From assembly GCA_035368605.1 (NCBI GenBank), contig DAOSLF010000010.1:766-64765 (forward strand): a DNA stretch of 64,000 nt, in the 5' to 3' direction. Source of the DNA: Candidatus Omnitrophota bacterium. GTDB taxonomy: Bacteria; Omnitrophota; Omnitrophia; Omnitrophales; Aquincolibacteriaceae. The position numbers were made by a program, and so were the translations under genes. The notes beneath the pieces were generated by a model. It was given only the letters and a program-made list of their open reading frames with translations, ran no database searches and was not told the DNA's origin. This document shows, in pieces, positions 3,506-37,452 of the stretch. Numbering within the stretch: the first letter of the stretch is position 1; the number at the start of each line of letters is the position of its first letter.

Positions 3506-3700
3506 TCGCCACGCGTGCCGCGCCGCACGAAGAAGATCCTTCTCTCGCGGCATGTGCTGTGCGGCTTTTTGTCCGGTTTGAACAGAAAGGAAAAATAACG
3601 CGTCTCGGGTTCATGGCGACCCGCCGGCCCTTCATCTTCGGCGTGAGTTTTCCGCTTTCCGGCATCGCCGTCGCTTGAGCCTGTTCGCCGAAGAACCGTC

Positions 3701-5581: not shown

Positions 5582-5612
5582 ACCGGGACCTCGTTTTCAT
5601 TCGCGGCGCGGA

Positions 5613-7124: not shown

Positions 7125-7132
7125 CGATCCTC

Positions 7133-9195: not shown

Positions 9196-9199
9196 CGCT

Positions 9200-10135: not shown

Positions 10136-10149
10136 ACGCCGCCTCGATT

Positions 10150-12657: not shown

Positions 12658-13026
12658 ATCATTTCCTGTCCGGTGAGAGACCCGAAAAACAAGGCTCCCC
12701 GGCCCGGTGTTACTTCATGGCACAAAATGATTTGATACAAGGTTGGAGACGCCGCGGACCCTGAACGATCCGTTCACTCATGTTAATCTCATCACAGACA
12801 GCCGATCATTTGCCAAGCTGGCTTTGCGGGCTGATGAAGCGGACATTACAGATCGTAAGACCAAAAGATTTCTTGCCATACGCGTCTACGTGTATTCACG
12901 CATACTAGAGCAAATATAAAAACTGTCAATGCCCCCTCATGGCTTTTCGCGGTATGCGCCGTGTGGCGTATGGCATGTCATACATTCTATTTGATTCCCC
13001 TGTTAAAATCAGTAAGCTTTGTTGCC

Positions 13027-14241
13027 ATGAACTCCCCAAAAAGCAAGGCACTTCGTCTCATCCTCCTCTTCGGATGCGTCAGTCTCTTTGGTGACATCAT
13101 TTATGAGGGCGCGCGCAGCGTCAACGGTCCCTACCTCAAGGTCCTCGGCGCAAACGCTCTTCTCGTCGGCGTCATCGCGGGGATCGGTGAGTTCCTCGGG
13201 TACACGATCCGTCTTTTTTCCGGCTATCTTTCCGACAAGACGCGTTCCTACTGGTTCTTCACGATCCTCGGCTACGCGTTGATCGTCTCGGTGCCGCTCC
13301 TCGCGTTCACGTCCCTCTGGCACGTCGCGGCGCTCCTGATCGTGGCGGAACGGATCGGGAAGGCCCTCCGCAGCCCGGCCAAAGACACGATCCTGTCACA
13401 GGCCACCAAACAGGTCGGCACCGGCTTCGGCTTCGGGCTGAACGAGATGATGGATCAGATCGGCGCGCTCGCCGGTCCGCTCATCTTCACGTTTTTCTTC
13501 CTGTCGAAAGGCGCGGGGGATCGGACGCTCGCGGACTACCAGCACGGCTACGGTCTCTTTTGGATCCCCTTTGCGCTCCTGATGCTCTGCGTGCTCTTCG
13601 CGTGGCGGAGTGTCCCTGACCCCGCGGCGCTCGAGCCTGCGAAAACGAACGAGCCGGACAAGCTCCCGAAGGTCTTCTGGACCTATACAGTGTTCAGTTT
13701 TCTCACAACCATGGGTTTCGTGAACTTCGTCCTGCTCGCCTTCCACTACAAAACACGGCAGGTACTCTCGGACATGGAGATTCCGCTCTATTACGCGATC
13801 GCGATGGGCGTGGACGGCGCCGCGGCGCTCGGCGTCGGAAAACTCTACGATATCCTGAAAGAAAAGAACGGCCACGATCACGGAGGACTCGCGACGCTCA
13901 TCGTGATCCCGGTCCTTTCGGCCCTGATCCCCTTCCTCGCTTTCTCGGGATCGCGGTGGGTCGTGGCCGCCGGGATCATCCTCTGGGGCATCGTCATGGC
14001 CTGCCATGAGACCATCATGAAATCCGCGATCGCAGATATCACGCCGCTCCGGAAAAGAGGCACGGGTTACGGGGTTCTCAATACTGCCTACGGCCTCGCG
14101 ATGCTGACGGGAGGTGTCTTGACGGGTTATCTGTACGACCGGTCCCTCCCTCTTCTGATCGGCGCGACGGTCACACTGCAGATATTCTCTCTTCCCTTCT
14201 TCATGTCGATCCAAAAAAGCGTTGCCGAAACGAAGACGTAA
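13027..14241 (+). CDS. MFS transporter
   Basis: 12 predicted TM helices and the MFS loop motif (GxLSDKxxR-like). Confidence 0.7.
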   Translation: MNSPKSKALRLILLFGCVSLFGDIIYEGARSVNGPYLKVLGANALLVGVIAGIGEFLGYTIRLFSGYLSDKTRSYWFFTILGYALIVSVPLLAFTSLWHVAALLIVAERIGKALRSPAKDTILSQATKQVGTGFGFGLNEMMDQIGALAGPLIFTFFFLSKGAGDRTLADYQHGYGLFWIPFALLMLCVLFAWRSVPDPAALEPAKTNEPDKLPKVFWTYTVFSFLTTMGFVNFVLLAFHYKTRQVLSDMEIPLYYAIAMGVDGAAALGVGKLYDILKEKNGHDHGGLATLIVIPVLSALIPFLAFSGSRWVVAAGIILWGIVMACHETIMKSAIADITPLRKRGTGYGVLNTAYGLAMLTGGVLTGYLYDRSLPLLIGATVTLQIFSLPFFMSIQKSVAETKT

Positions 14242-14431
14242 CCGCCAAACGGTGATTTTCCGGTCGGGAATCCTCCCGGGGAACCGCGGGACCTTCCTGA
14301 AAGCAGGCGGGGGATTTCGGGGAGGCTTTGGCTTTCACAAGGACAGAGACGGCCCGGCCAGCCGCGCCCAGGGCGCTTTTCGCATTCATCTCCGGAAGCG
14401 ATAAGGATGGGACAGCTCGGGATAAAAACGT

Positions 14432-16216
14432 TCAGCTGTTCTGAATGGCGGTCTGGTTCTTGCCGGAAGCCTTGGCTTTGAGCAGGGCCTCCCGGGCCCG
14501 CTGGACAACTTTATCCGGATTTTTTTCACCCGGCTTCAGTACCGCGACGCCGGCACTGACCGTGACATGGAAGGAAGGGTCACCGGCCTTGTCCGTCCTG
14601 AATTCGATCCGCTCAAGCGATTTCCGGATCCGCTCGGCGATGCCGAACGTGACTGTCGCGAGGTTGTATCCCGCGAGAAGCACGATGAATTCTTCGTCTC
14701 CGTAGCGGCCCGCGACATCGGGGACAACGCGGCCTTTCGTCCGGATCGCACCGCGGATCACCTCCGCCACGCGCTTGAGAACGATATTACCCATGCGGTA
14801 CCCGTAAACGTCATTGACTTTTCTGAAATCGTCGATGTCGAGGAGGATGACGGCGAACGGCTTGCGAAAGGTTTGAGCATAACGCATGGCCTGAACCAGA
14901 AATGTCGAGACATAACGCATCACGTAGAGCCCGGTCAGTTCGTCGCGCGCGGCCAGGTTGAGAAAATACATGCGCTCACGACGTTCGGCGATCTTGCCGG
15001 TCACCCCCGAGATCAGGAGAAACAGCGCGATCAAAAGGATCTGCGGGACAACACCGAACCACACGTTCGCTCCGCTGAAAAGCCAGAAAGACAGAAGCGC
15101 CCAGAGGGCCGCCAGGGCCGCCGCGGCGAGCATGGCATAAACACCCCGGATCGAGAGCATCACGGCCCCCGCGGCCAGCGCGACAAGGATCAGGCCGGCG
15201 GCCGCCTCGGCGGACGACGGAATCCGGATGAAATCCTCCGTCAGGATCATGTTGATGATGTTGCCGGTCACGCCGATCCCCGGTGTCGCGGCATCAAGGG
15301 GGGTTCTTTTGAAATCGGAAGCGGTCAGACCGATCAGGCATATCCTGTTCTTGAAATCTTCCGGCCGGATCGGGCTCGTCTGGCCCTTCTGGATTGCCGC
15401 GTACCCGTTCAGGATATCCGCGAAGGGATAATACCCCGAAAGGGCGTTCCATTTTTTCGTCCAGCGAATCATGAGATTGTTATTCCGGTCGAGGGGCAGC
15501 GCGCATTCCGCGGGCGGCGGCACGCTCTTCCCGAGATGGTCATAAGCGACGCGGAAACCAAGGTGCGGCAGCAGGTTCCGGTTGAACTTCACGTAGGGGT
15601 AGGCGCGACGGATCACCCCGTCGGGGTCTGGCGTGTAATTGATGTGGCCGATGCCCCGGGCTTCCGCGGCGTAGAGAGAATCCGACTGGTTCACGTAATA
15701 GTAGTTCCGGAAACCTTCCGATTCAAAGGAAAGGGGCAGGTAGATGTTCCCGGACCTATTGAACTCCGCGAGCAACGCCTCGTTGTCCTCCTGCGAGTCC
15801 CCGGCCTGCGAAAAGAAAAGATTAAAGACGACCGTCTTCGCGCCCCACTCCCGGAGGATGCGGGCCATGGCCGCATAGTAGCGCTTGGGCCAGGGAAACT
15901 GTTTGACGGACTGCAGGCTTTTGCGGTCAATCCCGATGTAAACAATGTCCGGACTGACGGGAGAGTCTCCCTGCGCCTTCAAGAAAATATCGAAAACACG
16001 ATTATCGAGATTCTGCACCCACGCGGTCTGTGAATGCCCGAGGAAGCAGATGAGAACCAGAAGGAAGGAAAGCAGCTGGATCAGACGGAGCGGCGTAAAA
16101 AAAACGACAATCCGCCGCAGCAGCTCGGTCGCGTATCCCTGCCGCCGGCGGACGAGACCTTGGGGCGTCTTTTCCATGAATCCGATACCGCCTTTCCTAG
16201 CTATGGGGTTCTCCAA
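14432..16216 (-). CDS. membrane sensor with periplasmic CHASE2-like domain and C-terminal GGDEF domain (motif reads GDEEF)
   Basis: N-terminal TM, long periplasmic segment, 3-TM block, then a GGDEF fold (DxFKxxND, RYGDEEF). Confidence 0.8.
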   Translation of the reverse strand: MENPIARKGGIGFMEKTPQGLVRRRQGYATELLRRIVVFFTPLRLIQLLSFLLVLICFLGHSQTAWVQNLDNRVFDIFLKAQGDSPVSPDIVYIGIDRKSLQSVKQFPWPKRYYAAMARILREWGAKTVVFNLFFSQAGDSQEDNEALLAEFNRSGNIYLPLSFESEGFRNYYYVNQSDSLYAAEARGIGHINYTPDPDGVIRRAYPYVKFNRNLLPHLGFRVAYDHLGKSVPPPAECALPLDRNNNLMIRWTKKWNALSGYYPFADILNGYAAIQKGQTSPIRPEDFKNRICLIGLTASDFKRTPLDAATPGIGVTGNIINMILTEDFIRIPSSAEAAAGLILVALAAGAVMLSIRGVYAMLAAAALAALWALLSFWLFSGANVWFGVVPQILLIALFLLISGVTGKIAERRERMYFLNLAARDELTGLYVMRYVSTFLVQAMRYAQTFRKPFAVILLDIDDFRKVNDVYGYRMGNIVLKRVAEVIRGAIRTKGRVVPDVAGRYGDEEFIVLLAGYNLATVTFGIAERIRKSLERIEFRTDKAGDPSFHVTVSAGVAVLKPGEKNPDKVVQRAREALLKAKASGKNQTAIQNS

Positions 16217-16317
16217 GAAACAAAACCCCGGCAGCAGTGAACAACGGCAAAAAACTCCCCCGGCTTTACGGAAGTTTTTTCAAAAAAGAGCTATGTGTTC
16301 AGCCTCGCACGCGGAAC

Positions 16318-16347
16318 GTAAATATAACCCCCAAAAGGGCGGGGGCG
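16318..16347 (-). terminator. rho-independent-like terminator after the 130-aa membrane protein gene
   Basis: On the minus strand: GCCCCCGCCCTTTTGGGGG hairpin followed by TTATATTT. Confidence 0.35.
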
Positions 16348-16360
16348 TGGCGGCGCACGG

Positions 16361-16753
16361 CTAGAAAATCATCCCCATCGTCAGGAGCGCCGCGCCGACC
16401 GCCGCTGACGACAGCATGACCACCCGCAGGGCGAGGGGTTCTTCCATGAGCGCGAGGACCATCTCCCGGCATCGCTTCCAGAAAAGGACCCCGGCGATGA
16501 CCTTGAAGAGGGTGAGAAGCATCATAAAGGTCACGACGAACGCGGCCGGAGTCGGAGCGCGGAAGAGCATCCCGATCGTCACGAGGAAGAGGACGGTCCA
16601 GAGGATACCGACATGGAGGACCCATCGCGGCCGGTCCTCTTTCGTGACCGCAAGCGCCATCCGTTTCCGGGCCGCCGGCCGAAAGACGACCCAAAGCCCG
16701 GTGAGGACCATCCAGCTGCCGATCGCGATGCCCAGAATCCTGAAGTAAGTCAT
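16361..16753 (-). CDS. hypothetical 4-TM membrane protein
   Basis: Hydrophobic 130-aa ORF with terminator-like hairpin downstream. Confidence 0.4.
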   Translation of the reverse strand: MTYFRILGIAIGSWMVLTGLWVVFRPAARKRMALAVTKEDRPRWVLHVGILWTVLFLVTIGMLFRAPTPAAFVVTFMMLLTLFKVIAGVLFWKRCREMVLALMEEPLALRVVMLSSAAVGAALLTMGMIF

Positions 16754-16756
16754 GCT

Positions 16757-16823
16757 TAGCCCCCGGTACCGGGTACGGGGTACGGAGCTTGCGTCGACGA
16801 GTTGCTTCCGTGCTCCGTACGCG
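16757..16823. repeat. GC-rich hairpin repeat (GGTACGGAG ... CTCCGTACG inverted units)
   Basis: ggtaccgggtacggggtacggagc ... gtgctccgtacgcgtac. Related copies at 30262-30316 and 37921-37995. Confidence 0.45.
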
Positions 16824-16825
16824 TA

Positions 16826-17038
16826 CTATTCCTTTTTCTTTTTCCGTCCTTCAATGATAAGCGCTACGCCGACCGTGAAGAATGACAGGAATCCGGCGAG
16901 TGAAAGAATCATGTTCTCCATCGTCCCCGCCCAGAATGCGGCCGCGATCAGCGCGATGCCCGGCAGAAACCATTTAAGCCAATAGCTTGATCGAAACATG
17001 CCTCCAGTTTCCTCCATTTCCTCCTCCCCTTCAACCAA
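16826..17038 (-). CDS. small hypothetical membrane protein
   Basis: 70-aa ORF with two hydrophobic helices; weak. Confidence 0.3.
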   Translation of the reverse strand: MVEGEEEMEETGGMFRSSYWLKWFLPGIALIAAAFWAGTMENMILSLAGFLSFFTVGVALIIEGRKKKKE

Positions 17039-17039
17039 T

Positions 17040-17060
17040 ATCCAACCTCGTAGGTTGGAT
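17040..17060. repeat. REP palindrome ATCCAACCTCGTAGGTTGGAT (copy A)
   Basis: 9-bp inverted arms around a 3-bp centre, immediately 3' of the RAYT gene. Confidence 0.7.
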
Positions 17061-17065
17061 ACCGG

Positions 17066-17725
17066 TCATTCCATCATCAAACCCTTGAGAATGGCTGTTT
17101 CCCTTTGAGCATCCCGATGCTTCTCCACAAAGTTTTGATATTCCGCAGATGTAAAATCAAAAACACCTTGAAACGCACAAAGCCCTGGCTCCTGGGACGA
17201 CCGGGACAAATACTCCTGATAGGAAGAGTGCTCCCATTCGCCCGGCTTGTTGACCAGACCGGCGCTCGCAGGATTCAAATGGATATAGCGTGACAAATGC
17301 AAGGCTTGTTCATTTGTTTTGACGCGAACATTTTTGAAGCGCCCCTCCCAAAGGGGTCCTTTCCGCTTATGCCTCAGATTAAAATACCGCGCATAACCAT
17401 TGAGGAGCCTTCCCATGAAAACAGATATACCGTTCGTTGCGGATTGCCTGAGAAACAAATGAATATGGGTCGGCATAAGGCAATAGGCGATAATATGAAC
17501 CAGTCGTTCTTTCTCCCGCCGCTCGGTCATCCGCGGGGTCATGTCCTTTCCAAGCCGTTTGAGCCACGAAAATTTCATGGCAGGATCCGAAACCTGGTGA
17601 AACTCCAGAAGCGATTTCATTCGGTCGAATTCGTCTTTATGGTTAAAAATGACGAATCCCGCGATACTTTTCGTATAAACATGGTAATACTCCCCCGTCG
17701 CCAACGGATCCTTGCGAACCTGCAT
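17066..17725 (-). mobile_element. REP-associated tyrosine transposase (RAYT, IS200/IS605 TnpA-like HUH enzyme)
   Basis: GEYYHVYTK N-terminal motif, HUH motif PTHIHLFL, catalytic Tyr motif YIHLNP. Flanked by inverted REP copies. Confidence 0.8.
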
Positions 17726-17749
17726 CTTTGAATCCTCGATTCCACCGCC

Positions 17750-17769
17750 TCCAACCTACGAGGTTGGAT
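17750..17769. repeat. REP palindrome (copy B, inverted orientation relative to copy A)
   Basis: TCCAACCTACGAGGTTGGAT is the reverse complement of copy A, on the other side of the RAYT gene. Confidence 0.7.
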
Positions 17770-17851
17770 ATGGTTTTAAGTAATATTTTGTTTGCTTATA
17801 ATATAATAACCGAAAGGATCCGTCCACTTTTTCTTGCGCTTCGAGACCGAA

Positions 17852-17872
17852 ATCCAACCTCACAGGTTGGAA
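17852..17872. repeat. REP-like variant ATCCAACCTCACAGGTTGGAA (copy C)
   Basis: Same arms with CAC centre, 5 bp after the stop of the 3601-aa gene. Confidence 0.55.
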
Positions 17873-17876
17873 TTGG

Positions 17877-20800
17877 TTAGGCGGCGGAGGCGAGGGAGCG
17901 GGCGGCTTCGGCAGCGATCTGGATATTCTCGGCCAGGAGGAGAATGGCACTCAGCGGCTGCACGCCCCGCGGGAGGTCCTTGTTCTCAAGCAAGGTGTTG
18001 AGGGAAGCGATCAAGCCGTAGGACCTCTGGCTCAGCGTCATCCCCTTGTCGTTATAGACCGAGAGCACCCGTTTCCCGCGGCCCGCCTTCGCGAGCGACG
18101 GCGCGAGCGAGCGCAACCCGGCCCCCTCGTCACCGCGCAGGTCATAGACCAGGCCGCCTTCGGAATTCCGTCCGAAGAATCCCGCAATTTTCATTTCGTC
18201 GGAGTCAACCGAAAGATCGATCCTCCCGCCCGCCTTGCGCGCTTTTTGCGCCATTTTCATGAGCATCCGGCTGAACTCCCCGAGCTCGGTCTTCGACACA
18301 CCCGGGATGATGATCTGAAAAAGGAATTTGCTGTTCGCGATCAGGACCACGAGCGTTTGAAGGACGGGATCGTTCGCCGCGGGGACCGCGTCAAAGATCA
18401 CCGCGACCTGCTCCCTCCCGCTCTCAAGCTTCACCGGATCCATCAGCAGGTCTTTTGCTTCCCGAGTCCCGGAACCCGGGGTCCGGATCTTCATCGTGTG
18501 TGCCGCTGGCACCAGGGAATCGAGGACTCGCCCGAGTTCCGCCCGTCCGATCGCGAGTACTCGCTCCTGCCGGAGCACATACGCCGCCGCTCGCGCCACG
18601 CCGATTTCGTTTGGATCGAGGATCCGTTTCTGGCTCTCCGCCAGGGAACGCTTTTCGCTCCGCCGGGCTGAAAGAGGAAGCCCCGCGACGTTCTTCGACA
18701 GAACGGAGCCGTCCCTTCTTTTCCCCGGCACCCCCCCCCTGTCTTCGGTCGGGGCCATCCTTTTCTCGCTGCGGGGATCTCCGGTCTCTGGTTCAAAAAC
18801 CCAGCGGAGCACGGTGACGTTATCCAGTGCCTTGTGATCGCCGGCCAGGACCACATAGTCATCGGCCATACGCCCCTTGAGAGACAAATCCCGTATCCTT
18901 CTGTCCCGCTCCACGCGTCCGCCCGGGTCATCTCCGTGTATGCCATCCGTGGCTACAAGAATCTCGATAGACTCCCGTGCGTCCGTCAGATCGATCTTCA
19001 GAATCTCGGGCTTCCGGATCAGCGTGGGCGAAAAAGCGCGGTCGCCAAAACCCCGCGTCGTGGTCGTGGACCTCCCCGTTCTCAAATTCCGGATGAAAAC
19101 GCGCCCGTCCTCCGCCGCAACCTCAAATCCGGGCGCGGGGCGCATATCCGGGTCTTCCGCGACCCCATGTTCGGGAAGCGGCACCGGCTCTCTCCGGTCC
19201 TTGAAAATGTAGACCGGCGAATCGCCGAGAATCATGACGTATGCGGTTTTCCGGTCCTTCGGGACATAGACGAGGGACAGCGTCGATCCCGAATACATCC
19301 ACGCGGTCAGTATCTGGAGGATGCGATTCGTCCCCGCGAGCGCCGATTCAATATTCCCCCGGTGCCAGAGGACCAGCACCCGGAAAAACGGAACAAGCAG
19401 GGCCCGGAGGAGATTGACCGCACCGGCGCCCCCGTGACCGTCCATCACCGCCATCATCCGCCCGCCGCCGCCCGGGAATCCCGAGATCAGAGAACCGACA
19501 TTCCTGTGGAAGAATCGGTCTTCCTGCTTCCCGCGAATCCCCTCGGCCTGGGCCGTCTCGAATTCACCGAAAATTTCGCCGAGCATGACCTTCAGGGTGC
19601 CGGCGATGATCCGTACCATCAATTTTCCGGACCAGCTCAGGACTTCGTCGGCATTCCGATCCAGGGCACGGATAAGCTCCGCCCGCGTCGGCGGCCCTTT
19701 CCCGAACCTGCGCTGCCACATGTGGAAAGAACACCAGCCGGGTTTTCGGGTATTGAACACCGTGGCGTAGGAAGGATAGATATCCAGTTCCTGCTGTCGC
19801 AGGGGACGCGGTCCGACGATCGACATTTCGCCTTTGAGGATGTTGATCGCCTGAGGGAGCTCATCGAGTCCCGTCCGGCGCAGGAATGCCCCGAAGCGGG
19901 TCGGCACCCTGTTGCCCGATACCGGCATCGTCCGGAATTTGTATATTTTGAAAAGCTTCCCTTTATAACCCGGGCGCTCTTGCGTGAAAAAAACAGGCCA
20001 TCCGATGAAAGGCGCAAAGACCGCGGTCGCGGCGGCAAGAACCGGCATAATGATAAAAAGAGACGCGACGATATCGATAGCCCTGAGCCACGGCGCCCAT
20101 TTCGCGTAAGGCGACCCCGCGAATATTTTCTCCGTGATAACTTCCGGGGCTGATTGTCCCGCAGGAGCTTTCTGCTTCGTGCCCGGTTCTGTGCGGACAC
20201 GCGGCGTGAGTTCCCAAATGCCGGGAGCTTCGAGGAGTTTTTTCCAATCTTCGATCGGAACGAACCGGTAATAGCTGATATCGCGGCCGTCCTCTCTTTC
20301 GAACTGAACGCTATGAAGCCTGGCATACGTCCCCGCCTTCAGGCTGTTTTTCGCGCCGTCCGACTCGATGAACCCGCGGAAGTGGAAGATGTCCCGCCGA
20401 TCCTGTCCCTTGCTGTCGGGAGCGTGCGGGATATAAAGTACGGCGCCGCCGGTAAGCCGCCGGGACGGGTCATCGAGCTTCTGCGAGGAAGAAACCTTCA
20501 TCAGTTCCGCGAGCGCCCCGGGATAGTCTTTGTCGTAAGAATAGATCGACCCGAGCTTCCGGAGAGCGTCATTGAAGGCCCGATGCGCGTCTTTTTCCTC
20601 AGGCCCCTTCAAAACCACCATATCCAACCTCGTAGGTTGGATGGGTTGCCGTACCTCCGGGCGGGAAACGGGAATGGATCCGTCCGTGCCTTGTGGCGAA
20701 CCGGAACGCGTCGGGTGGGCGAACTCCCGTGACAGAATCCTCTCGAAATCTTTCGGGATCATGACGCCATCGCTCATTACGAATTCAAAAGCGCCCGCGT

Positions 20801-23800
20801 TCATGTCGCTCCACGCCTGGGCATAAACCTTGATATCCGTCAGGAAAATTCTTCCGGAAGCGTCAATCGCGAATTCGATCACCAGCGGATGGCGAAAATA
20901 ATCCTGCCAGAACCGGGCAAGTTGATAAATTTCCCGGAGCTGGGGATTCCCGAGCGCGGCTTTCTGTCCGTCATTTTCCGGGATCTCTTCCGTCACAAGC
21001 CCTTCCCCGTCCGGATCGAGTGATTTTTGAGTTCTTTTTTCTCCGATATGGATCTTCGTAAAATCGTCGGGGGCATCCATCCGCACCAGATCCGTACCGA
21101 CCTCTTCCTGGGATCCCGCCGTCAAGCCGTATCCGGCACTCAGGACCATCGTCGAGCGGTTCACCGTAAGCACTCCGGAAACCTTTGCGGGGATCATCGG
21201 CTGGACAAACACGCTCATGAACCCGCCGAACATGTCCGTCCCTCTCATCTTACGCACCCCGATCGCCCGGGGCGTCCATGCGGAAGCGATCACTTCCTGG
21301 GCGGCCGCCGCAAGATTCTCCGCGCGAACCCCGATAACCGAGGCGTGAGTTCCCGGAAGAACAGCCCCGGAACTTTCCTCCTGTCCCGCCGAGCGCACGG
21401 CAAAACGCGCCTGCCGCCTGTCCCGGACAAGTTTTCCGGTCCACGCTTCCCATGGAAAATCCCTCAACCCTTTGCCGGGCCCATCAAGAAGCTGACGGAT
21501 TTTTTCGTAGCGTTTCCCGGCCGGGATATCTTCTTCCAGGATTCGCCGTATTTCGGGTTCAAAAGGCCCGACAGCCTCCTCAAAAGCCTTTCGGGTCATC
21601 ACGAACCCATCCTCGATAAAACCCGGTGCCCGGGGATCCGCCTCTTTCAGGACCAGCGCCTCTCCAAGCTCCCGGGCCTTTCCTCCGACCTCCTCCGCCG
21701 CGAAGAACGTCTGATTCAACCGCACGGCCGAAACGTCCTTGAACGGTTCTCTCTTTTCTTTGGATGTTTGTTCATAACTCTCGCGCAAATTTCGAACGGC
21801 CGGCAGATCCGTCAGTCCGAAATGTTCGGCTTCCTTTAACATCCTCGCGAGGGCGGGGAGGTCGGACGACACGATCTTTTTTTCAGTCGCGCTTTCCATT
21901 TTCGCGATTAACTTTCTGCTCAGGTCTTTCCAGCGGCGCATCACCTCTCTCTTGAAATCCCCCGTCTCCCGGACAAACCCCTGGTCCGCTTCGAAGCGCG
22001 GCCGGTCGCCTCCGAGACAGGCGTTGGCAAAAGCAACAAAGGATTCATACGCACGCATTCTCTTTTTCGTTTCCAGAAAAAGGGAAACAATCTCCTGGGG
22101 AAACGTGGTGTCGGTCACCTTCCCATGCGCCGACCGGAGCCAGTTCCGGAGTTCTTTTTCGCTCCGGGAAATATAACGGGCCAACTCCCCTTCGGAAACC
22201 CTGGCCTTGGCAAGCAAGGCCTTTTTCATATCGTCCGGGATCGTTCCGGAGGAAAGGATTTCCGACAAAAGATAGTCCCGCTGCCTCGCCGACAACGCGC
22301 CAAGATCGAATTGTTTGAGATCCCCCGCCGTCAGCAATCCGGCCTCCGCCTTTCCCAGAAGATCGAACTGCCGTCGAAACATCCTCGATGTCCCGAGAAT
22401 CTCTACTTTCCCGGTCTCATCCAGAAGCACGATCGTGTTTTCATCAGCCCGCACAAGGTCGGGAATCTCGCGGATTTGCCGCACCGAATAGCCTCCGATG
22501 TTTACGGCGGAATCTTTCTCGTATCTCCGCAACTCGAATCCGTCGGGCTGTTGCTCCCCGTTCCGGTGAATATCGATGTCCGGCAGACCGACCCGGTGCA
22601 CGCGAAGGCTTTGCAGCGAGAGATTGGTATGGCTCGTTAAATTGGCCAAACCCGACGATGTCTGCAGAATGCCGGCAATGCTGGAATCCTCCGCGCCCGG
22701 ATCTTTCGGGATCATCGCGATATCCTGATCGGAAATTTCATCGCGCAGCAGCACGTATCGCTCGTGGGAGGGCGCGTGAGAAGGCAGGCGCGTCACCAGC
22801 TTTCCCGCGCGCGGGGCAAGGCTTGGCGAAAATCCGCTCCCCTTGCAGCCATAAGTCAATTCCGGCGAAGACGTCTCAAGCCCTTGTCTTAAAGTTTCCT
22901 CTTTCACCGCCGTGTCCGCGGAGACATCAAACCTGGGGGTCATGAGCGGATAAAAAACCTCGAGCTGATCTTCGATCTCTGCGGCCAAGACCGTCCCGTC
23001 TTTTTTCTCCGCCGAAAGAACATAAACGAAAGAGCTCTGGTCCGCGTTCATCAGGGCATAGAAAACACGCGCCTGTCCCGGAAGCTCCACGGCAACCCTG
23101 ACCGCAAGAAAACGCCCGATCAGGGCAAGCGGTTTAAACCCGGAAAAATAATGCCGCGGAAGACGGTTTAAAACCTTCGCGCTTGCGAAAGACTGGTCCT
23201 GTTCGCCGACCGGCCGCGATAAAGCGTTAAGGAGCCGTTCGACCGGGGTTTTCCATTCGCTGTATTCGGGATTTTTCCCGAGAACACCGTCCCCGCCCCG
23301 GATCAGCCTTCCTTCGAGCAAGCCCTGCCGGATAGGCTCGACAAGATATTGGGCAAAAGACACCTGGTTCAGGAAAATCTCATCTTCGGGGAAAGGCTCA
23401 AGACCCAGCCCGGCAAGAATCCTGTTAAAATAATCCCGGGCTTGACCGACAGAAGATTGCGTGCGGAACATACGCATCCTTTTATCGATCTCCCCTTCAA
23501 TGTATTGAAGGGGCAGACGCGGATACCTCAGACCCATACCGGTCTTTCCGGCGGCATTCGCATCCGCTTCGGCCTGGCGGACCCTTCGGATGAGTTCCTC
23601 AAAAAGGAGATTGTCGGGGATATCCTTCAAAAGGTCCCGGCTCATTCCCAAATAGGCTCCCAGCATGGAGTCCATATTCACCAGACCCAGTCCCGAATAA
23701 AGCAGAACCGGTACCCGGCGGGACAGCGCGAAAAGCGAATGGGGCTCTTTCGCCGCGTCTTCATTTAAACGGGCTGCCACGGTCGGTTGGATCGTTGTCC

Positions 23801-26800
23801 TCAAAGTATTCCCGAGGGCCTCTCCGCCGGCATCGTTCCCTCCCGGCATCAGCAGAGCGTCCAGGTTCCCCTGGTTGCTCACGGGTCCCAGGGATAACGC
23901 CATGACCTGGTAATGCGCTCCGCGCGTCGGCTTGAATGTGAGCTTCGCCAGACTTCCGTTAAAGACCAGCGCCTCCTCGTAGGGGCCGACCAATGACGGG
24001 AAAGCCACCCCTGAAACGGGTTTCCGGTCGCGGGCCGTCCCGATCCCGTCGGCGACATAATCAGGAAGCGCGGGAGGCAAACTCTCCAGAAGAAAAGTCA
24101 GCGCCGCGGAATTCCTGCCGGAAAGCGTGTTATACGATGTCAGGTCCGTCAAATGGACGGGCGCGACCGCCTCGGTCTTTTCCGCAGGATCATACCGTAC
24201 CATCGGCGATACCACATGCAGGCCCGGATCGATAAGAACATTATAAAAACGGCTCCGCATCAACTCCTTGCGGTCGAGTCCCCGGAGCACCTCCGTCTTC
24301 CGCTGGTCTTCGGGGTCCGAAACGATGTTCCCAAAATGCGAGAGATAATAGTGGTGAAGAAAATTAACAAATTCATTCAGGATCTGCGCCCTCCGGATCC
24401 GGCTTTCCGGCCACTCGTAATCATGTTCCCACCCCGGAGAAATGGAAAGGAGGCTCGAGGGCGCGCTCGTCCGGCTCTTGCGAAACAACTCTTCCTTCTT
24501 CGCGGCAATCCGGCTGAAAAATTCGCGTTCCTTTTCCTGCCGGAACGCTCCGCGGAAGAGGTCCTTGAACGCGGAGGCGAAGGCGGTCACGGATTCCAGA
24601 AATTCATGCCGCTCCAGCTCCTTGAGGCCGGAACTTGTCGCGATAGCCTGTGCCTTTTCCCGGACTTTAAGATGCATCTTTTCAAATTCCGCCACGCGGG
24701 CGTCCAGAACGTTCCGGTTGATGGAATAAAAACCCAAATTCCAGAACGGGCCGTCTTTGCGAATATTCCTGCCTGTAAACAAAGAGGCCATATTCTCGGG
24801 AACGGCAAATCGCATCTCCTGATTCAGGAGGGCGCGCTCGTCCCCCGAAGGAACGGTGTCATCGTCAACATCTCCTTCGATGTCGGGGTCTTCATTCCGG
24901 ACAACCTTCGCTCGCTCCGGCGTTTCGGGCACAAAACTGATATAGACAATTTTCTCGAGATGAACAAGGTCGCTGAGATGCGCGCTCGTGACCGGCATCC
25001 CATAGAGTGTCCTGAAATTACGGATCACTTCCCTCAGTTTTTCAGCCCCTCCGAATTCCCGAACCGCGCGGTCGAGATTCTTTTTCATGAATTCACCCGT
25101 CAACCCCGCCCGGAGCATGAGCATGGGGTGCAGGAGCGCGCCAACGCCGGAATCCGTTTCACGGGCAATTTTCCGAAAATAATCAAAATCCTCACGGGAC
25201 ATGCCCGCGGCAACGGCCCTGCCTCTCAAATCTTCCAGAATCTCCGGCGTGACGGGGATTCTCCGCAGGTTTTCCCCGGCCAGGAATTTCAGTGAATCGG
25301 GATGAGGCCCTTTTAGCGCCCCGGCAAGAGCATCGAAGGAGTCGTGGATTTCCAGCAAGACTTCAGGGTCCTCCCGAACAAGACCGGCCAGAACGGCTCC
25401 TGCCTTTTCTTTTCCGGTTCGATCCGGGCTATGGAGCTGTCGTATCAACTCGGAGATTTGAGAACTTCTTGCCCGATTTTTATCATCCACCGGCTCGGTT
25501 CTCCGGTTTAGAAGAAGTTCCCGATCCGGGGCCGGAGGCTCCCGTTGTTCGGAACGGACGGACAAATCTTTGACGGGCTGAAGGATCGCCCGGACGCCTT
25601 TCGGAAAATATTTTTTCGCTATATCGTCCCGGACCATCAGCAACGCGATATAACGGTCCGAATGTGCGAACTCCTGGGATGTGGCCCCGGCGAGGACCGA
25701 GTAAGCTTCGCTGAAAGGCCCCATGATGTCTTCCCGCAGGGCGAAGGTCAACCCCGTGGTAATGACCATCGCGGGTTCAAGCCGTTTCACTTCCTCCAAA
25801 AAACTCATTTCCTCCCCTTCGGAATAAGCTCCGAAAACATAGGAGATGTTCATGACCACGATCGCGTCCTTCCACTCCGCGGGGTCCACCTCCCCCGAAT
25901 CCAGGGCTTTCCCGAGATATTCCACGGTCTGGTGGCGGTTCGGCTCCCAGCCGTTACGCTTGAGATTCCCAGCCAAACGGGCGCGTTTTACGGCAACAGG
26001 TTCCACAAAAAGGACTTTCGGGGAGTTCCGGAAAAACAATCCCAGTTTTCCGTCACTCGCTCCAAAATCAACGGCCGGGAAATCCTGAACGACCGGCCGG
26101 AGCTGTTGCATCAGTGCAAGAGCAACGTGAGCCGACGCGACCGGCGTTTCGGACCGCCCCATAAAGTCGGGGTTTTCCAACGCAATAAACTGCACATCCG
26201 GATACCGGGACGTCGCGGGGCCGAGGATCGCCCGAGTCGCAGGGTGATCCCGGTAATAAACGACATCTCCGTGCCGGCGAACGATCACCTGCTTTTCCCC
26301 GGATCCGTCGATGTCCGCTTCAAAATAATCCAGGGGGACCAGATCCCCATCCCGATTCGCGGAATGATAAAAATCATGTATCACGTCCGGGAATTTCTCA
26401 CGAAAGAGGGGGAAGAGCTCCCTGATAAAATCCCCCTCCACGGATCCGATCGATTCGTTGAGCGCGGCGCGGACCGCCTTGGGGAGGCTGGACATGAGAC
26501 CTTCCAGGCTCACCATCAAACGGTCCAGACATTCTCCTGCGTTAAAGTAATAGGAAGGATTCCCGATGTAGGCGGAAAGAGACGGAAAATCCCGTTTCAG
26601 ATGTTCAGTGACGCTTTTTGAACGCGCGAACGTGTCGGGAACGGCATTGTAACCGTAGGTCACTTTAAAACGATCCGGCCTTCGGACAAAATAAACCGCC
26701 CGTTGAGCCTCCGCGACACTCAGGAACGGTTTCACGTCTTCGTCCCGAAGCCTCGCCTCGGCGCGACCTTCCAACGGTTTCAACCGCGCGGGCCGACGAG

Positions 26801-28682
26801 GGTCCCGCGTAAGACCGTGGGCCGCCAGGGCCGGAGACCTGAGGGAAGCGATCAACTCACCGACAGGCGTTTTTCTCCGGCTGCTGATCACGTGAAGGGC
26901 TTCCCGGAATATTCCAAGAAGGCGATCAGCGGTGGCGGACCCAAGGTCTTGACGCAGGAGATGATATCCGGACGCGAACGAAGGAGGGCGGACATTGGAC
27001 GACCGGAATTGTCGTTCCGGCCCCGGAGACGAGGTCCGGTCTTTAAGGAGCATCGCATCCAGGTAGGCGCCGGGTTTGCCGGGTTTCGTGATGCGTGGCG
27101 TGACCCGCACGCAGGAGATCCCGGCCTTTTTCAGGAATTCCGTAACGCCGGTGGAGTGGTAACCGCCGGTAACGAGTACGGCGTTCGGCTGTTTCATTGC
27201 CTTCATCCGCGCGATCATGTTCGCAAGCAGGGCTTGCTCGCGGGCTTCAGCGGTTTCGTAAAACGCCCGGGCCTGGTTGAGCGCCGCCCGCACGGGGCTT
27301 CCGTCCGCCGGTTTTACTCCGGGCTCCGCACCCCGCACTGACTTTTGATATTCCTCACTCGTCAATTCCAGGCTGAAAAGCTTCTTCAGTATCCGGTACT
27401 CCCTGTACCGCTCGACCAGCGCCTTCTCTTCGGGCTTGCCGGCGAGTTTTTCAAGGATGCGGTCGTTCAGCCTTTCGACCTCTTCGAAAAGTTCGGGGGT
27501 CCGGAGTTCGGAGGAAAGGATCGCGCTGCCGATCTCCCTGGCCAGGACGGGATAGTCTTCGAATCTGAAACCGAGCGGTGAGGCGGATTCATAAAAACGC
27601 TCCACGGCCGTTCGGAAATCAGATGTAGTGCGGGGCGCGGAGTGCGGGGCGCGGCGTTTCAGATCATTGATAAATTCGCAAGAGTCCGGTTTGAGACCTT
27701 TCCCGCTCACCCATTCACGCAGTTTTGTTTCATCCACCCCGTGCTCCGTACGTTGTACGCCGTGCCCGGGTTTTTCAAGCTGTTGAAGTCTGAAAAATCT
27801 GACGAGTTGCGGCCAGTCATACTGTTCGTAAGGATCCGTGAGATCCAGGTCCAGATATTTCGCGGCGGCGCCGGCCATTCGATCGAGACCCGAGAACGGC
27901 TGATCCGCAACCTCGGTCCGGAAAGCCCATTCCCTGAAGAAGGTTTTGCATTCGGGGTTCAGGGTTCGGGAAGCGTCATCGGCGATCTTCTGCCGCTGAT
28001 CCCTGAGGAACGCATCGGTCCGCGGTTTGGCGGCATAGACCGCCCGGAACTGCTCGAGATTCTTTTTGTAAAGCGGAAGATCTTCCACGCCATGGACACG
28101 CCCCGGAACCTGGGCACGGGATACGGAGTACGGCTCAAGACCCGTTGACGCAGGCTCCGTGCCTCGGTCTCCGTACTCTGCACTCAAAAAAAGCTCGACG
28201 CCGCCGATCAGCCCGACCCGGTTCAATTCCTGAAGAAGCTCCCGATTGAGCTCACTGTCATCAAAGAACCGGAGCGCCTCGGGCTCCAGCTCTTGCCAGA
28301 CACCTTCGAGGTATACTGTATCAAGATTGTAATATTCGCGGAGATATTCGAGGATTCTGGCGATGTTCTCCTGCCCCTCCGGCTGCCCGTGGGCCTCCTC
28401 AATATGGACAATGAGTCCGGAAGAAGGACTCGCGGGACCGGCCGCGTAGCAAGTTTCCCGTATTGAACCGATCTCCGGGGGGATGACGATGTGATCCGGA
28501 AGCGTCAGCGACCGGATCTCCGAACTCCTTATTCCCGGCTCCGTATCGAGTGCGGGCATTCCCCACGCAATCGTGGTCGTGACAAAGCAGATCAGCGTGA
28601 ACAGACTGACCGCGCGAAGATAGTGACAAATCCTGCCTTGGTTTTTGAGCATAGCCGGACTGATAGAACGCCTTTCCTCCAA
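17877..28682 (-). CDS. giant 3601-aa multidomain protein. Order: N-terminal TM, shared ~450-aa His-motif domain, Rossmann/MTase-like segment, swivel-His-like domain, PEP-synthase/PPDK-type ATP-grasp domain, PglC-like phosphoglycosyl transferase, PP2C phosphatase, 300-aa C-terminal tail.
   Basis: Single uninterrupted ORF. Individual domain motifs are listed in the findings. Confidence 0.8.
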   Translation of the reverse strand: MEERRSISPAMLKNQGRICHYLRAVSLFTLICFVTTTIAWGMPALDTEPGIRSSEIRSLTLPDHIVIPPEIGSIRETCYAAGPASPSSGLIVHIEEAHGQPEGQENIARILEYLREYYNLDTVYLEGVWQELEPEALRFFDDSELNRELLQELNRVGLIGGVELFLSAEYGDRGTEPASTGLEPYSVSRAQVPGRVHGVEDLPLYKKNLEQFRAVYAAKPRTDAFLRDQRQKIADDASRTLNPECKTFFREWAFRTEVADQPFSGLDRMAGAAAKYLDLDLTDPYEQYDWPQLVRFFRLQQLEKPGHGVQRTEHGVDETKLREWVSGKGLKPDSCEFINDLKRRAPHSAPRTTSDFRTAVERFYESASPLGFRFEDYPVLAREIGSAILSSELRTPELFEEVERLNDRILEKLAGKPEEKALVERYREYRILKKLFSLELTSEEYQKSVRGAEPGVKPADGSPVRAALNQARAFYETAEAREQALLANMIARMKAMKQPNAVLVTGGYHSTGVTEFLKKAGISCVRVTPRITKPGKPGAYLDAMLLKDRTSSPGPERQFRSSNVRPPSFASGYHLLRQDLGSATADRLLGIFREALHVISSRRKTPVGELIASLRSPALAAHGLTRDPRRPARLKPLEGRAEARLRDEDVKPFLSVAEAQRAVYFVRRPDRFKVTYGYNAVPDTFARSKSVTEHLKRDFPSLSAYIGNPSYYFNAGECLDRLMVSLEGLMSSLPKAVRAALNESIGSVEGDFIRELFPLFREKFPDVIHDFYHSANRDGDLVPLDYFEADIDGSGEKQVIVRRHGDVVYYRDHPATRAILGPATSRYPDVQFIALENPDFMGRSETPVASAHVALALMQQLRPVVQDFPAVDFGASDGKLGLFFRNSPKVLFVEPVAVKRARLAGNLKRNGWEPNRHQTVEYLGKALDSGEVDPAEWKDAIVVMNISYVFGAYSEGEEMSFLEEVKRLEPAMVITTGLTFALREDIMGPFSEAYSVLAGATSQEFAHSDRYIALLMVRDDIAKKYFPKGVRAILQPVKDLSVRSEQREPPAPDRELLLNRRTEPVDDKNRARSSQISELIRQLHSPDRTGKEKAGAVLAGLVREDPEVLLEIHDSFDALAGALKGPHPDSLKFLAGENLRRIPVTPEILEDLRGRAVAAGMSREDFDYFRKIARETDSGVGALLHPMLMLRAGLTGEFMKKNLDRAVREFGGAEKLREVIRNFRTLYGMPVTSAHLSDLVHLEKIVYISFVPETPERAKVVRNEDPDIEGDVDDDTVPSGDERALLNQEMRFAVPENMASLFTGRNIRKDGPFWNLGFYSINRNVLDARVAEFEKMHLKVREKAQAIATSSGLKELERHEFLESVTAFASAFKDLFRGAFRQEKEREFFSRIAAKKEELFRKSRTSAPSSLLSISPGWEHDYEWPESRIRRAQILNEFVNFLHHYYLSHFGNIVSDPEDQRKTEVLRGLDRKELMRSRFYNVLIDPGLHVVSPMVRYDPAEKTEAVAPVHLTDLTSYNTLSGRNSAALTFLLESLPPALPDYVADGIGTARDRKPVSGVAFPSLVGPYEEALVFNGSLAKLTFKPTRGAHYQVMALSLGPVSNQGNLDALLMPGGNDAGGEALGNTLRTTIQPTVAARLNEDAAKEPHSLFALSRRVPVLLYSGLGLVNMDSMLGAYLGMSRDLLKDIPDNLLFEELIRRVRQAEADANAAGKTGMGLRYPRLPLQYIEGEIDKRMRMFRTQSSVGQARDYFNRILAGLGLEPFPEDEIFLNQVSFAQYLVEPIRQGLLEGRLIRGGDGVLGKNPEYSEWKTPVERLLNALSRPVGEQDQSFASAKVLNRLPRHYFSGFKPLALIGRFLAVRVAVELPGQARVFYALMNADQSSFVYVLSAEKKDGTVLAAEIEDQLEVFYPLMTPRFDVSADTAVKEETLRQGLETSSPELTYGCKGSGFSPSLAPRAGKLVTRLPSHAPSHERYVLLRDEISDQDIAMIPKDPGAEDSSIAGILQTSSGLANLTSHTNLSLQSLRVHRVGLPDIDIHRNGEQQPDGFELRRYEKDSAVNIGGYSVRQIREIPDLVRADENTIVLLDETGKVEILGTSRMFRRQFDLLGKAEAGLLTAGDLKQFDLGALSARQRDYLLSEILSSGTIPDDMKKALLAKARVSEGELARYISRSEKELRNWLRSAHGKVTDTTFPQEIVSLFLETKKRMRAYESFVAFANACLGGDRPRFEADQGFVRETGDFKREVMRRWKDLSRKLIAKMESATEKKIVSSDLPALARMLKEAEHFGLTDLPAVRNLRESYEQTSKEKREPFKDVSAVRLNQTFFAAEEVGGKARELGEALVLKEADPRAPGFIEDGFVMTRKAFEEAVGPFEPEIRRILEEDIPAGKRYEKIRQLLDGPGKGLRDFPWEAWTGKLVRDRRQARFAVRSAGQEESSGAVLPGTHASVIGVRAENLAAAAQEVIASAWTPRAIGVRKMRGTDMFGGFMSVFVQPMIPAKVSGVLTVNRSTMVLSAGYGLTAGSQEEVGTDLVRMDAPDDFTKIHIGEKRTQKSLDPDGEGLVTEEIPENDGQKAALGNPQLREIYQLARFWQDYFRHPLVIEFAIDASGRIFLTDIKVYAQAWSDMNAGAFEFVMSDGVMIPKDFERILSREFAHPTRSGSPQGTDGSIPVSRPEVRQPIQPTRLDMVVLKGPEEKDAHRAFNDALRKLGSIYSYDKDYPGALAELMKVSSSQKLDDPSRRLTGGAVLYIPHAPDSKGQDRRDIFHFRGFIESDGAKNSLKAGTYARLHSVQFEREDGRDISYYRFVPIEDWKKLLEAPGIWELTPRVRTEPGTKQKAPAGQSAPEVITEKIFAGSPYAKWAPWLRAIDIVASLFIIMPVLAAATAVFAPFIGWPVFFTQERPGYKGKLFKIYKFRTMPVSGNRVPTRFGAFLRRTGLDELPQAINILKGEMSIVGPRPLRQQELDIYPSYATVFNTRKPGWCSFHMWQRRFGKGPPTRAELIRALDRNADEVLSWSGKLMVRIIAGTLKVMLGEIFGEFETAQAEGIRGKQEDRFFHRNVGSLISGFPGGGGRMMAVMDGHGGAGAVNLLRALLVPFFRVLVLWHRGNIESALAGTNRILQILTAWMYSGSTLSLVYVPKDRKTAYVMILGDSPVYIFKDRREPVPLPEHGVAEDPDMRPAPGFEVAAEDGRVFIRNLRTGRSTTTTRGFGDRAFSPTLIRKPEILKIDLTDARESIEILVATDGIHGDDPGGRVERDRRIRDLSLKGRMADDYVVLAGDHKALDNVTVLRWVFEPETGDPRSEKRMAPTEDRGGVPGKRRDGSVLSKNVAGLPLSARRSEKRSLAESQKRILDPNEIGVARAAAYVLRQERVLAIGRAELGRVLDSLVPAAHTMKIRTPGSGTREAKDLLMDPVKLESGREQVAVIFDAVPAANDPVLQTLVVLIANSKFLFQIIIPGVSKTELGEFSRMLMKMAQKARKAGGRIDLSVDSDEMKIAGFFGRNSEGGLVYDLRGDEGAGLRSLAPSLAKAGRGKRVLSVYNDKGMTLSQRSYGLIASLNTLLENKDLPRGVQPLSAILLLAENIQIAAEAARSLASAA
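18798..19520 (-). other. PP2C-type Ser/Thr phosphatase domain within the 3601-aa protein
   Basis: RMMAVMDGHGG, ILGDSPVYIFKD, LVATDGIHGDD metal-binding motifs. Confidence 0.65.
19698..20075 (-). other. PglC-like monotopic phosphoglycosyl transferase (bacterial sugar transferase) domain within the 3601-aa protein
   Basis: Re-entrant hydrophobic helix, then FFTQERPGYKGKLFKIYKFRTM and TGLDELPQAINILKGEMSIVGPRP. This closely follows the PglC/WbaP catalytic-domain consensus, including the DE dyad. Confidence 0.8.
20622..20642. repeat. REP palindrome copy D, located in-frame inside the 3601-aa ORF
   Basis: Identical to copy A. Translates on the minus strand as IQPTRLD within ...VRQPIQPTRLDMVV... 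Confidence 0.7.
20800..21698 (-). other. PEP-synthase/PPDK N-terminal-type ATP-grasp nucleotide-binding domain within the 3601-aa protein
   Basis: AEEVGGKARELGEAL ... PGFIEDGFVMT (GGKA nucleotide-binding motif + PGF) and downstream DMFGGFMSVFVQPMI. Confidence 0.55.
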
Positions 28683-36549: not shown

Positions 36550-36647
36550 TCAAACCTCAGTGATAAGTCCGGGGGTTAAGCGGTAAAGATTGCAAGTGCC
36601 GGACGCGGGGTCCCCTGATCACTTACAACTTGCCACTTATCACTCAT

Positions 36648-37331: not shown

Positions 37332-37452
37332 GGTTCACTCCGTTGGCGACGGGCCCCGGTCAGCGGGGGCCCAAGTTGAGAGAGTCTTAATGACTTTCGT
37401 TAAAACTTCCTTCCGGGAATTGCGTATATTCTATACGAAAGGGGTCATCGCC

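Follow-up and report, generated by a model that had tools for sequence, protein, structure and literature searches.

What does a bacterial protein of 3601 residues do when a phosphoglycosyl transferase (PGT), a PP2C phosphatase and an ATP-grasp domain are carried on the same chain? The question is raised by a giant open reading frame (ORF) on contig DAOSLF010000010.1 of a Candidatus Omnitrophota bacterium, of which a stretch of 64,000 nucleotides, here called the window, was analysed. A preliminary description of the locus had proposed an unprecedented machine for glycoconjugate or polysaccharide initiation plus modification, paralogous to a second giant of 4642 amino acids (aa) in the same window. 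Our analysis leads to a different answer: the giants probably form a mosaic family, almost entirely confined to Omnitrophota, that is built from a head, a variable cargo and a tail, and the domain combination of the 3601-aa protein is best read as one permutation of that cargo, not as a conserved glycan pathway.

A single gene with a family head, punctuation and tail

The ORF proved to be as first described, one uninterrupted frame, here counted from a TTG codon. The ATG of the database coding sequence lies 10 codons inside it, at 28652, and the product deposited from that start is named 'sugar transferase [Candidatus Omnitrophota bacterium]'. The gene and its parts, with the corresponding part of the neighbouring giant, are as follows:

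17877–28682, minus strand: whole ORF, 3601 aa counted from TTG, uninterrupted
17877–28652, minus strand: database coding sequence, ATG start, 3591 aa, HOE68966.1
28560–28652, minus strand: Sec-type signal peptide as read from the sequence, aa 11–41
27003–28559, minus strand: head domain, aa 42 to ~560, with conserved HIEEAH (93–98), E126 and TGGYHS (505–510)
26751–26765, minus strand: punctuation motif RAEAR, aa 640–644
25557–26750, minus strand: module A, an orphan, aa 645–1042
25542–25556, minus strand: punctuation motif RSEQR, aa 1043–1047
21696–25541, minus strand: orphan block, aa 1048–2329, which holds the 'TSH' segment
20841–21695, minus strand: PPDK_N-type ATP-grasp domain, aa 2330–2614
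20097–20840, minus strand: orphan linker region, aa 2615–2862, with degenerate punctuation relics
19581–20096, minus strand: monotopic PGT
18774–19565, minus strand: PP2C/PPM phosphatase, aa ~3040–3303, joined directly to the PGT, without an intervening punctuation motif
18648–18773, minus strand: two RSEKR motifs around a 32-aa spacer, aa 3304–3308 and 3341–3345
17880–18647, minus strand: conserved C-terminal tail, aa 3346–3601, a doubly wound alpha/beta domain ending ...AAEAARSLASAA
58211–59710, minus strand: paralogous signal peptide and head of the 4642-aa giant, within its ORF at 45782–59710

An exact-product look-up found the identical 3591-aa coding sequence on contig JAKPKJ010000061.1 (assembly GCA_029553765.1) and no exact record for the TTG-start product of 3601 aa. 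The 90% cluster of the giant holds 14 members from NCBI, ENA, JGI and Logan, half of which (7 of 14) are full length at exactly 3591 aa. These 3591-aa members, from at least seven independent assemblies, are 99.1–100% identical to the window protein and differ by substitutions only, with no indels; the head and the PGT are free of substitutions across them. Because the same indel-free product recurs in at least seven assemblies, a mis-join of several genes through sequencing error, a concern raised with the first description, is ruled out for practical purposes, and the ORF is a genuine single gene, not an assembly artefact.

The N-terminal segment, at first taken for a transmembrane (TM) helix, rather resembles a Sec signal peptide of the cleavable kind, composed of a basic n-region, the hydrophobic core AVSLFTLICFVTTTI and the c-region AWG/MP, where the predicted cut follows AWG (aa 41). 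In about 25 homologues the first ~40 residues have the same n/h/c pattern, with a small-x-small motif and then proline (AWG/MP, AWA/AP, AMA/MP, AFA/Q). The domain that follows, predicted to be shared over ~450 aa with the 4642-aa protein, is indeed common to both: BLASTP aligns aa 23–531 of the one with aa 9–481 of the other (31% identity over ~510 aa, E = 1.6e-55). Beyond this head the two window giants have no similarity by BLASTP, so that the proposed paralogy holds for the head and not for the rest. The conserved motifs of the head family are HIE[ED]AH, LEG and GG[FY]H. Judged from its model, the head is probably a hydrolase of the EreA/ChaN/TIKI/TraB fold, an assignment that stays at probable, short of established, because a sequence profile of the head found no match in the PDB, and a Foldseek comparison of the head model against the PDB returned nothing significant.

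The head is rare and largely restricted to one phylum. Used as a query (aa 1–560), it has five matches among 5.8 billion proteins, one of the five being named Omnitrophota, and a genome scan located 15 head-bearing loci, nearly all in Omnitrophota metagenome-assembled genomes. Most head-carrying ORFs are giants of at least 3,800 aa that run off the fetched flank, and the head-bearing relatives (cited below by labels such as L003 or P0040) reach at least 7,652 aa. By BLASTP, these relatives share the head alone with the window giant; the exception is L003, which also shares the PP2C module and the C-terminal region. At the other end, an alpha/beta tail of ~230 aa is common to several head-bearing giants and was seen at the C-termini of P0040, P0043, L003, P0041 and P0053. 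We note that all giants examined terminate in small residues (..SAA, ..RSA, ..QAA, ..WAA, ..IAA, ..KSA), which presumably recall the tags for tail-specific or ClpXP-type proteases.

Between head and tail, the chain is punctuated by the pentapeptide R[SA]E.R, which occurs far more often than in shuffled sequences, from which the expected counts were derived:

3601-aa protein (aa 640, 1043, 3304 and 3341): 4 observed, 0.28 expected
4642-aa neighbour (ORF 45782–59710): 13 observed, 0.35 expected
P0041: 22 observed, 0.41 expected
P0053: 15 observed, 0.67 expected

The enrichment in giants is thus 14- to 50-fold, and sites are present in L001, L003, L006–L008 and L011 as well. Within a given protein, the variable position mostly has one and the same residue (RSELR in P0053, RSEIR in P0041, RSEKR in the 3601-aa giant), and the codons of the sites vary, with serine encoded by both AGC and TCN. 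The motif is therefore kept at the protein level, and a DNA repeat or recombination joint was rejected as its origin. In all cases checked by coordinate comparison, R[SA]E.R never falls within a Pfam match and closely brackets modules, i.e., the PP2C of L003 and P0041, and the HPr, GNAT and helicase of L011; an RSEAR precedes the PGT of P0040. The stretches around the motif are rich in proline, glutamate and arginine and lie between Pfam domains. In the 3601-aa giant no R[SA]E.R occurs between aa 1043 and 3304, and for this reason the orphan region, ATP-grasp, PGT and PP2C constitute one uninterrupted block. Degenerate relics are seen at aa 2674 (RPEVR) and, as RVRTEPG, at the position of the P0040 RSEAR. 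In giants of other lineages, different linkers are repeated: P0138 has GASLG, and P0095 has runs of Ala/Pro.

These motifs might be sites of proteolysis by the TIKI/TraB-like head or some other protease, in which case the 3601-aa chain would be a polyprotein yielding the head, module A, a ~2,250-aa ATP-grasp–PGT–PP2C protein and the tail. The idea is compatible with a mosaic family, and the enrichment of the motif, its maintenance at the protein level and its placement in Pro/Glu/Arg-rich stretches between domains favour it; cleavage of Omnitrophota giants, at points not known, is also proposed by West-Roberts et al. (2023). Nevertheless, some motif pairs bracket a single TM helix only (P0041, aa 2959–2994), which would be odd as a released product, the head-bearing giants of other lineages with GASLG or Ala/Pro linkers lack the motif, and giants without a detectable head (P0053, P0042) carry it too. 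R[SA]E.R may be no more than a linker that is flexible or can be phosphorylated, and we regard cleavage as unlikely, though not strongly so.

The cargo between these constant elements differs from one relative to the next, as recognised by Pfam:

L001 (ORF 8684–20437): SF1 helicase, GlnD (uridylyltransferase domain)
L011 (ORF 9815–21631): GNAT, DEAD helicase, PTS-HPr
L003: PP2C
P0040: HAD, methyltransferase, PGT
P0048: SF1 helicase, GNAT, PGT

Individual modules of the 3601-aa giant recur in this changing company. In an exhaustive HMMER search with aa 2330–3330, homologous PGT modules were found inside P0040 (4446 aa, 52% identity), P0048 (2204 aa) and P0138 (7365 aa), and homologous PP2C modules inside at least eight other proteins of 1,276–7,989 aa. 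Among the matches listed, none has more than one of PPDK_N, PGT and PP2C, an absence that is not conclusive, as the query's own full-length cluster is missing from them. The named sources of the module-bearing giants are Omnitrophota, plus one labelled Elusimicrobia, and the partners of the PGT in these relatives are HAD, methyltransferase, helicase or GNAT domains, never glycan enzymes. The set comprising P0053, P0086, P0138, L001 and L011 includes one giant named 'Fic family protein'. By eye, P0086 has a Ser/Thr kinase-like motif and a sigma-factor-like stretch, and P0138 has cyclic-nucleotide-binding and response-regulator-like stretches; overall, the cargo repertoire of the relatives tilts to regulation and signalling.

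The catalytic modules and the orphan regions

The PGT was recognised by Pfam, by alignment to PglC, by a hydrophobicity scan and by a clade alignment, and the PglC-like domain first noticed in the C-terminal part of the protein is well founded. The Bac_transf profile (PF02397) covers aa 2867–3034 with 109.3 bits against a gathering threshold of 27 (E = 2.1e-31, profile positions 2–178 of 179). Solved PglC structures align with E = 1.2e-21 (8e37) and ~1e-21 (8g1n), over the re-entrant helix, KFRTM, the Asp-Glu dyad of LDELPQ, and GPRP. In its predicted topology, the re-entrant helix is a 38-aa hydrophobic segment (aa 2863–2900), with the proline in IIMPVL. It is followed by KFRTM (aa 2915–2919), the dyad D2940-E2941 and GPRP (aa 2957–2960), and the positions of the dyad and of GPRP are invariant in the clade alignment. 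An Asp-Glu catalytic dyad and a PRP nucleotide-binding motif characterise monotopic PGTs (PMC10186338).

'Almost textbook', as the domain had been called, is apt for its first two thirds and not for its C-terminal motif. The sequence PG[IL]TG.AQ..GRN, which is common in small PGTs and is not among the defining features in the PGT literature, is replaced by KPGWCSFHMWQRRFGKG (aa 2980–2996), and the replacement consensus PG.[CM]S..M.[QE]RGFGKG is also kept in the embedded PGTs of P0040 and P0048. Because it is kept among embedded PGTs, the altered motif is, on sequence comparison, a clade trait and not decay. The embedded PGTs of the relatives, at 44–56% identity, retain every invariant catalytic position; this conservation speaks for an enzyme that is functional but has diverged on its donor side, and the donor may be an unusual one, given that the C-terminal third is divergent and yet conserved in the clade.

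The same observations bear on whether the giant is an artefact or a pseudogene-like relic with dead enzyme modules. The gene has an IS200-type transposase as its immediate downstream neighbour, no domain can be recognised in about half of the protein, and the C-terminal third of the PGT and, by eye, parts of the ATP-grasp are off consensus. Against these stand the 3591-aa product of at least seven independent assemblies with its substitution-free head and PGT, the intact catalytic motifs of both PGT and PP2C, the conservation of the divergent PGT motif at 44–56% identity, and the fact that giant ORFs are the rule in the head-bearing family. Artefact or decay is, in our judgement, extremely improbable.

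The PP2C domain was expected directly after the PGT, and there it is: the junction of the two is a direct fusion. Pfam PF00481 scores 24.4 bits on the slice aa 3030–3340, against a cut-off of 20.3, and is not listed in the full-length scan; the L003 homologue (47% identity) reaches 31.4 bits. A profile made from nine PP2C modules matches 64 solved PPM phosphatases nearly end to end (best E = 1.9e-15). All motifs are present (R..QED, MDGHGG, GDSPVY, FGDRAF, ATDGIHG, DNVTV), and R3049, QED 3053–3055, MDGHGG 3080–3085, ATDG 3244–3247 and DN 3287–3288 are invariant across the nine modules. As in PP2C-alpha, the aspartates of ED, DGHGG, DG and DN would bind metal and the arginine would bind phosphate. 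The module thus resembles other PPM/PP2C phosphatases (FEM-2, 4jnd; PPM1K, 2iq1; plant clade A) in its full-length profile match and its canonical metal- and phosphate-binding motifs. Unlike them, it belongs to a clade of its own that occurs mostly as a module inside giants, and as a single sequence it lies barely above the Pfam threshold.

The third recognised module is an ATP-grasp domain. PPDK_N (PF01326) scores 90.1 bits against a gathering threshold of 27 (E = 2.2e-25), so that PPDK_N, like the PGT and, on its slice, the PP2C, exceeds its profile threshold. The domain matches PEP (phosphoenolpyruvate) synthase structures (9goj, 8a8e), and its nearest relatives are PEP synthase-like or rifampin-phosphotransferase-like, at 25–29% identity. 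NCBIfam concurs on the PGT and on the PEP-synthase-like part, with all its matches far below equivalog cut-offs.

A dikinase-like module had been proposed on the strength of this domain and of a swivel-His-like 'TSH' segment (aa 2005–2020, His2018; window 22623–22670); the ATP-grasp nucleotide-binding half of the proposal stands, and the other half does not. The segment has no match to PEP-utilizers (PF00391) of Pfam, in the full protein or in slices, and a custom PEP-utilizers profile, made from six genuine mobile domains including that of the 4642-aa neighbour, scores it at about -1 bit, the same as other 160-aa tiles of the protein. A homologue search with aa 1940–2620 matched the ATP-grasp part only, and neither Pfam nor NCBIfam has a match to a PEP/pyruvate-binding TIM-barrel domain anywhere in the protein. 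The 4642-aa giant, by contrast, has a complete pair of PPDK_N and PEP-utilizers (aa 1079–1558). Because the 'TSH' segment scores as background, a module order reversed relative to that giant has no statistical support; an order like that of plant glucan-water dikinase, in which the His domain precedes the ATP-grasp, was dropped for the same want of a His domain. Compared with the PEP synthase, PPDK and rifampin phosphotransferase family, the giant has the N-terminal PPDK_N ATP-grasp in common, and differs in having no detectable phospho-histidine swivel or PEP/pyruvate-binding domain.

The remaining regions are orphans. Module A has no Pfam match, no PDB match and no homologue among the fetched giants; a class-I methyltransferase was considered for it from a motif resemblance seen by eye, for which Pfam and PDB give no support. 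The block aa 1048–2329 has no Pfam or NCBIfam match and no homologues beyond its own cluster.

Mechanism, compartment and surroundings

Read in order, the cargo of the giant would comprise the orphan module of ~400 aa, and then the unpunctuated block aa 1048–3303 that ends in ATP-grasp, PGT and PP2C. From its motifs, the PGT is predicted to dock via the re-entrant helix and to move a sugar phosphate onto polyprenyl phosphate. The PP2C, coupled to it for want of a delimiter, would dephosphorylate a Ser/Thr-phosphorylated partner at the membrane site of the PGT. The ATP-grasp would bind ATP and, with no demonstrable phospho-histidine carrier, would not make a demonstrable dikinase.

Could these modules nevertheless make up a machine of the producing cell, anchored in its membrane and dedicated to glycoconjugates or polysaccharides, in which the PGT initiates, a dikinase-like module modifies and the PP2C regulates? 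The intact PGT and PP2C are directly fused, with no delimiter in aa 1043–3304; regulation of PGTs by phospho-signalling partners is known (PMC12802240), and bifunctional PGTs exist; and all three recognised modules require cytoplasmic cofactors. However, without swivel-His and PEP/pyruvate domains there is no demonstrable dikinase to do the modifying, a canonical signal peptide lies ahead of all modules, and the combination is not conserved past one species-level cluster. The homologous PGT modules elsewhere accompany helicase, GNAT, HAD and methyltransferase domains, and among the window ORFs scanned, to which all statements on context refer, there is no glycosyltransferase, flippase or polymerase gene. 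Because the PGT relatives lack glycan enzymes and the scanned window ORFs include no such glycan genes, the coherent initiation-plus-modification machine of the preliminary description is not indicated, and we judge any such machine to be decidedly unlikely.

The reading of the domain combination as one cargo permutation within a mosaic family has its own difficulties. The PPDK_N–PGT–PP2C combination is seen in a single cluster, whose members are at least 99% identical; it lacks evolutionary depth and so offers no way of showing that it has been selected for. Some 1,900 aa of the giant are without an assigned domain, and certain motifs of the ATP-grasp are divergent by eye. A signal peptide ahead of modules that depend on ATP, UDP-sugar or S-adenosylmethionine, with no intervening TM helix, is a paradox, and a re-entrant-helix PGT normally has both of its flanks in the cytoplasm. 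All of these points weigh against the cargo reading.

The paradox is not peculiar to this protein. In the giant, strong hydrophobicity is confined to the signal peptide and the PGT helix, and several relatives have no hydrophobic segment after the signal peptide, yet carry helicase, HPr, GNAT, methyltransferase or PP2C cargo; acetyl-CoA-dependent enzymes are likewise among the cargo of signal-peptide-bearing homologues. Following the rules of signal-peptide topogenesis, we lean slightly towards export, at close to even chances, in which case the cofactor-dependent cargo would act in or on another cell; this would fit the predatory or parasitic lifestyle that has been proposed for Omnitrophota. 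Action at the cytoplasmic face of the producer's own membrane is also possible, at somewhat less than even chances; the signal-like N-terminus would then not serve for export.

The surroundings of the giant offer no glycan-synthesis operon, a context that was rejected because the neighbours are housekeeping or unrelated genes. The scanned genes encode a DEAD helicase, a radical-SAM enzyme, an MFS transporter, CHASE2-GGDEF, SOD, DHFR and ThyA, together with a GldG-like ABC system, GGT, transketolase, an M24 peptidase and MqnA. Further features of the window are:

4904–11973, minus strand: membrane-bound hydrogenase or complex-I-like operon (Oxidored_q6, Complex1_49kDa/NiFeSe, two Proton_antipo_M, NADHdh, Oxidored_q2-like)
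17066–17725, minus strand: IS200-like Y1 transposase (PF01797), directly downstream of the giant and annotated on the NCBI contig too
29703–30959, plus strand: ORF beside the giants, Pfam-less
36640–37338, minus strand: ORF beside the giants, Pfam-less
44089–44688, minus strand: ORF beside the giants, Pfam-less
59991–62183, plus strand: ORF beside the giants, Pfam-less

The ORFs adjoining the giants (199–730 aa) have no Pfam match at E <= 0.001. In the 4642-aa giant, we note sub-threshold matches to alpha-glucan/glycogen phosphorylase at aa ~3262–3441 (PF00343, E = 0.008; TIGR02094, E = 0.004) and TM segments at aa ~1733–1768 and 1907–1933.

Known giants, bifunctional PGTs and the meaning of the family

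The premise that PGTs are normally small stand-alone enzymes was imprecise: the monotopic PGT literature gives large PGTs as the class with most members and recognises bifunctional fusions as a class as well. Like the giant, bifunctional monotopic PGTs (PMC11626204, PMC10312794) have a PglC-like core with a second catalytic domain C-terminal to it. The partner described for them, however, is an acetyltransferase or glycosyltransferase that serves the same glycan pathway, whereas that of the giant is a PP2C phosphatase, and the PGT of the giant comes only after ~2,860 residues of a chain that starts with a signal peptide and has a clade-specific C-terminal motif of its own. A PGT at residue ~2870 fused to PP2C is not described in the PGT literature consulted, which lists acetyltransferase and glycosyltransferase fusions.

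Nor is the giant 'unprecedented' as a type, since the published Omnitrophota proteins include multi-enzyme giants that carry PPDK_N and Ser/Thr phosphatase domains, and the PGT and PP2C modules recur in other giants. In two studies (West-Roberts et al. 2023, bioRxiv 10.1101/2023.11.21.568195; bioRxiv 10.64898/2026.06.07.730766), the published proteins have the phylum in common with ours and unrelated Pfam domains that tile the polypeptide (PPDK_N, Ser/Thr phosphatase, NUDIX, GNAT, methyltransferase and HAD among them), with an N-terminal signal peptide and a suspected role in cell interaction. At 3,591–3,601 aa, our giant is below their working length (at least 10,000 aa, the studies treating at least 10–30 thousand aa), and except for length it fits the published 'multi-enzyme' type of long Omnitrophota proteins. 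A word search of the two papers finds no mention of sugar transferase, Bac_transf, linker, polyprotein or motif; among the mentions listed, those of the N-terminus concern signal peptides and C39/S8 peptidase domains only, and those of the C-terminus, looked for in West-Roberts et al. alone, concern domains other than the tail. On this search, the head, the tail, the punctuation motif and the embedded PGT appear to be undescribed in these papers.

The layout of conserved ends around exchangeable cargo invites an analogy, not a homology, with another class of large proteins. MARTX toxins have conserved N- and C-terminal regions around a strain-variable array of effector modules, with sites between the modules. 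The head–cargo–tail layout is alike, and the MARTX effector RRSP is in the probable fold class of the head; unlike MARTX, the giant shows no sign of RTX repeats, of a cysteine protease domain or of a type I secretion signal, and its export would be through Sec. That the head-bearing giants are exported, MARTX-like polymorphic multi-effector polyproteins, cut at R[SA]E.R by the TIKI/TraB-like head or a partner protease, is very unlikely in our estimate. If it were true, the freed cofactor-dependent cargo would act inside a prey or host cell, and the monotopic PGT, inserting itself into the membrane while still fused to PP2C and ATP-grasp, would load the scarce undecaprenyl phosphate of the victim with a dead-end sugar phosphate, starving its cell-wall synthesis.

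Under the preferred reading of a mosaic family with exchangeable cargo, the finding matters in more than one respect. For glycobiology, the 'minimal' monotopic PGT core appears as a portable module, in an architecture outside the annotation classes of small, large and bifunctional PGTs. For the giants themselves, the common head, tail and delimiter motif allow modules to be parsed informatically and make the hypothesis of cleavage testable, a step that was blocked by absent cleavage-point information, according to West-Roberts et al. These features of the family bear on the role of giant proteins in predatory or parasitic Omnitrophota, and on whether such proteins are cut up.

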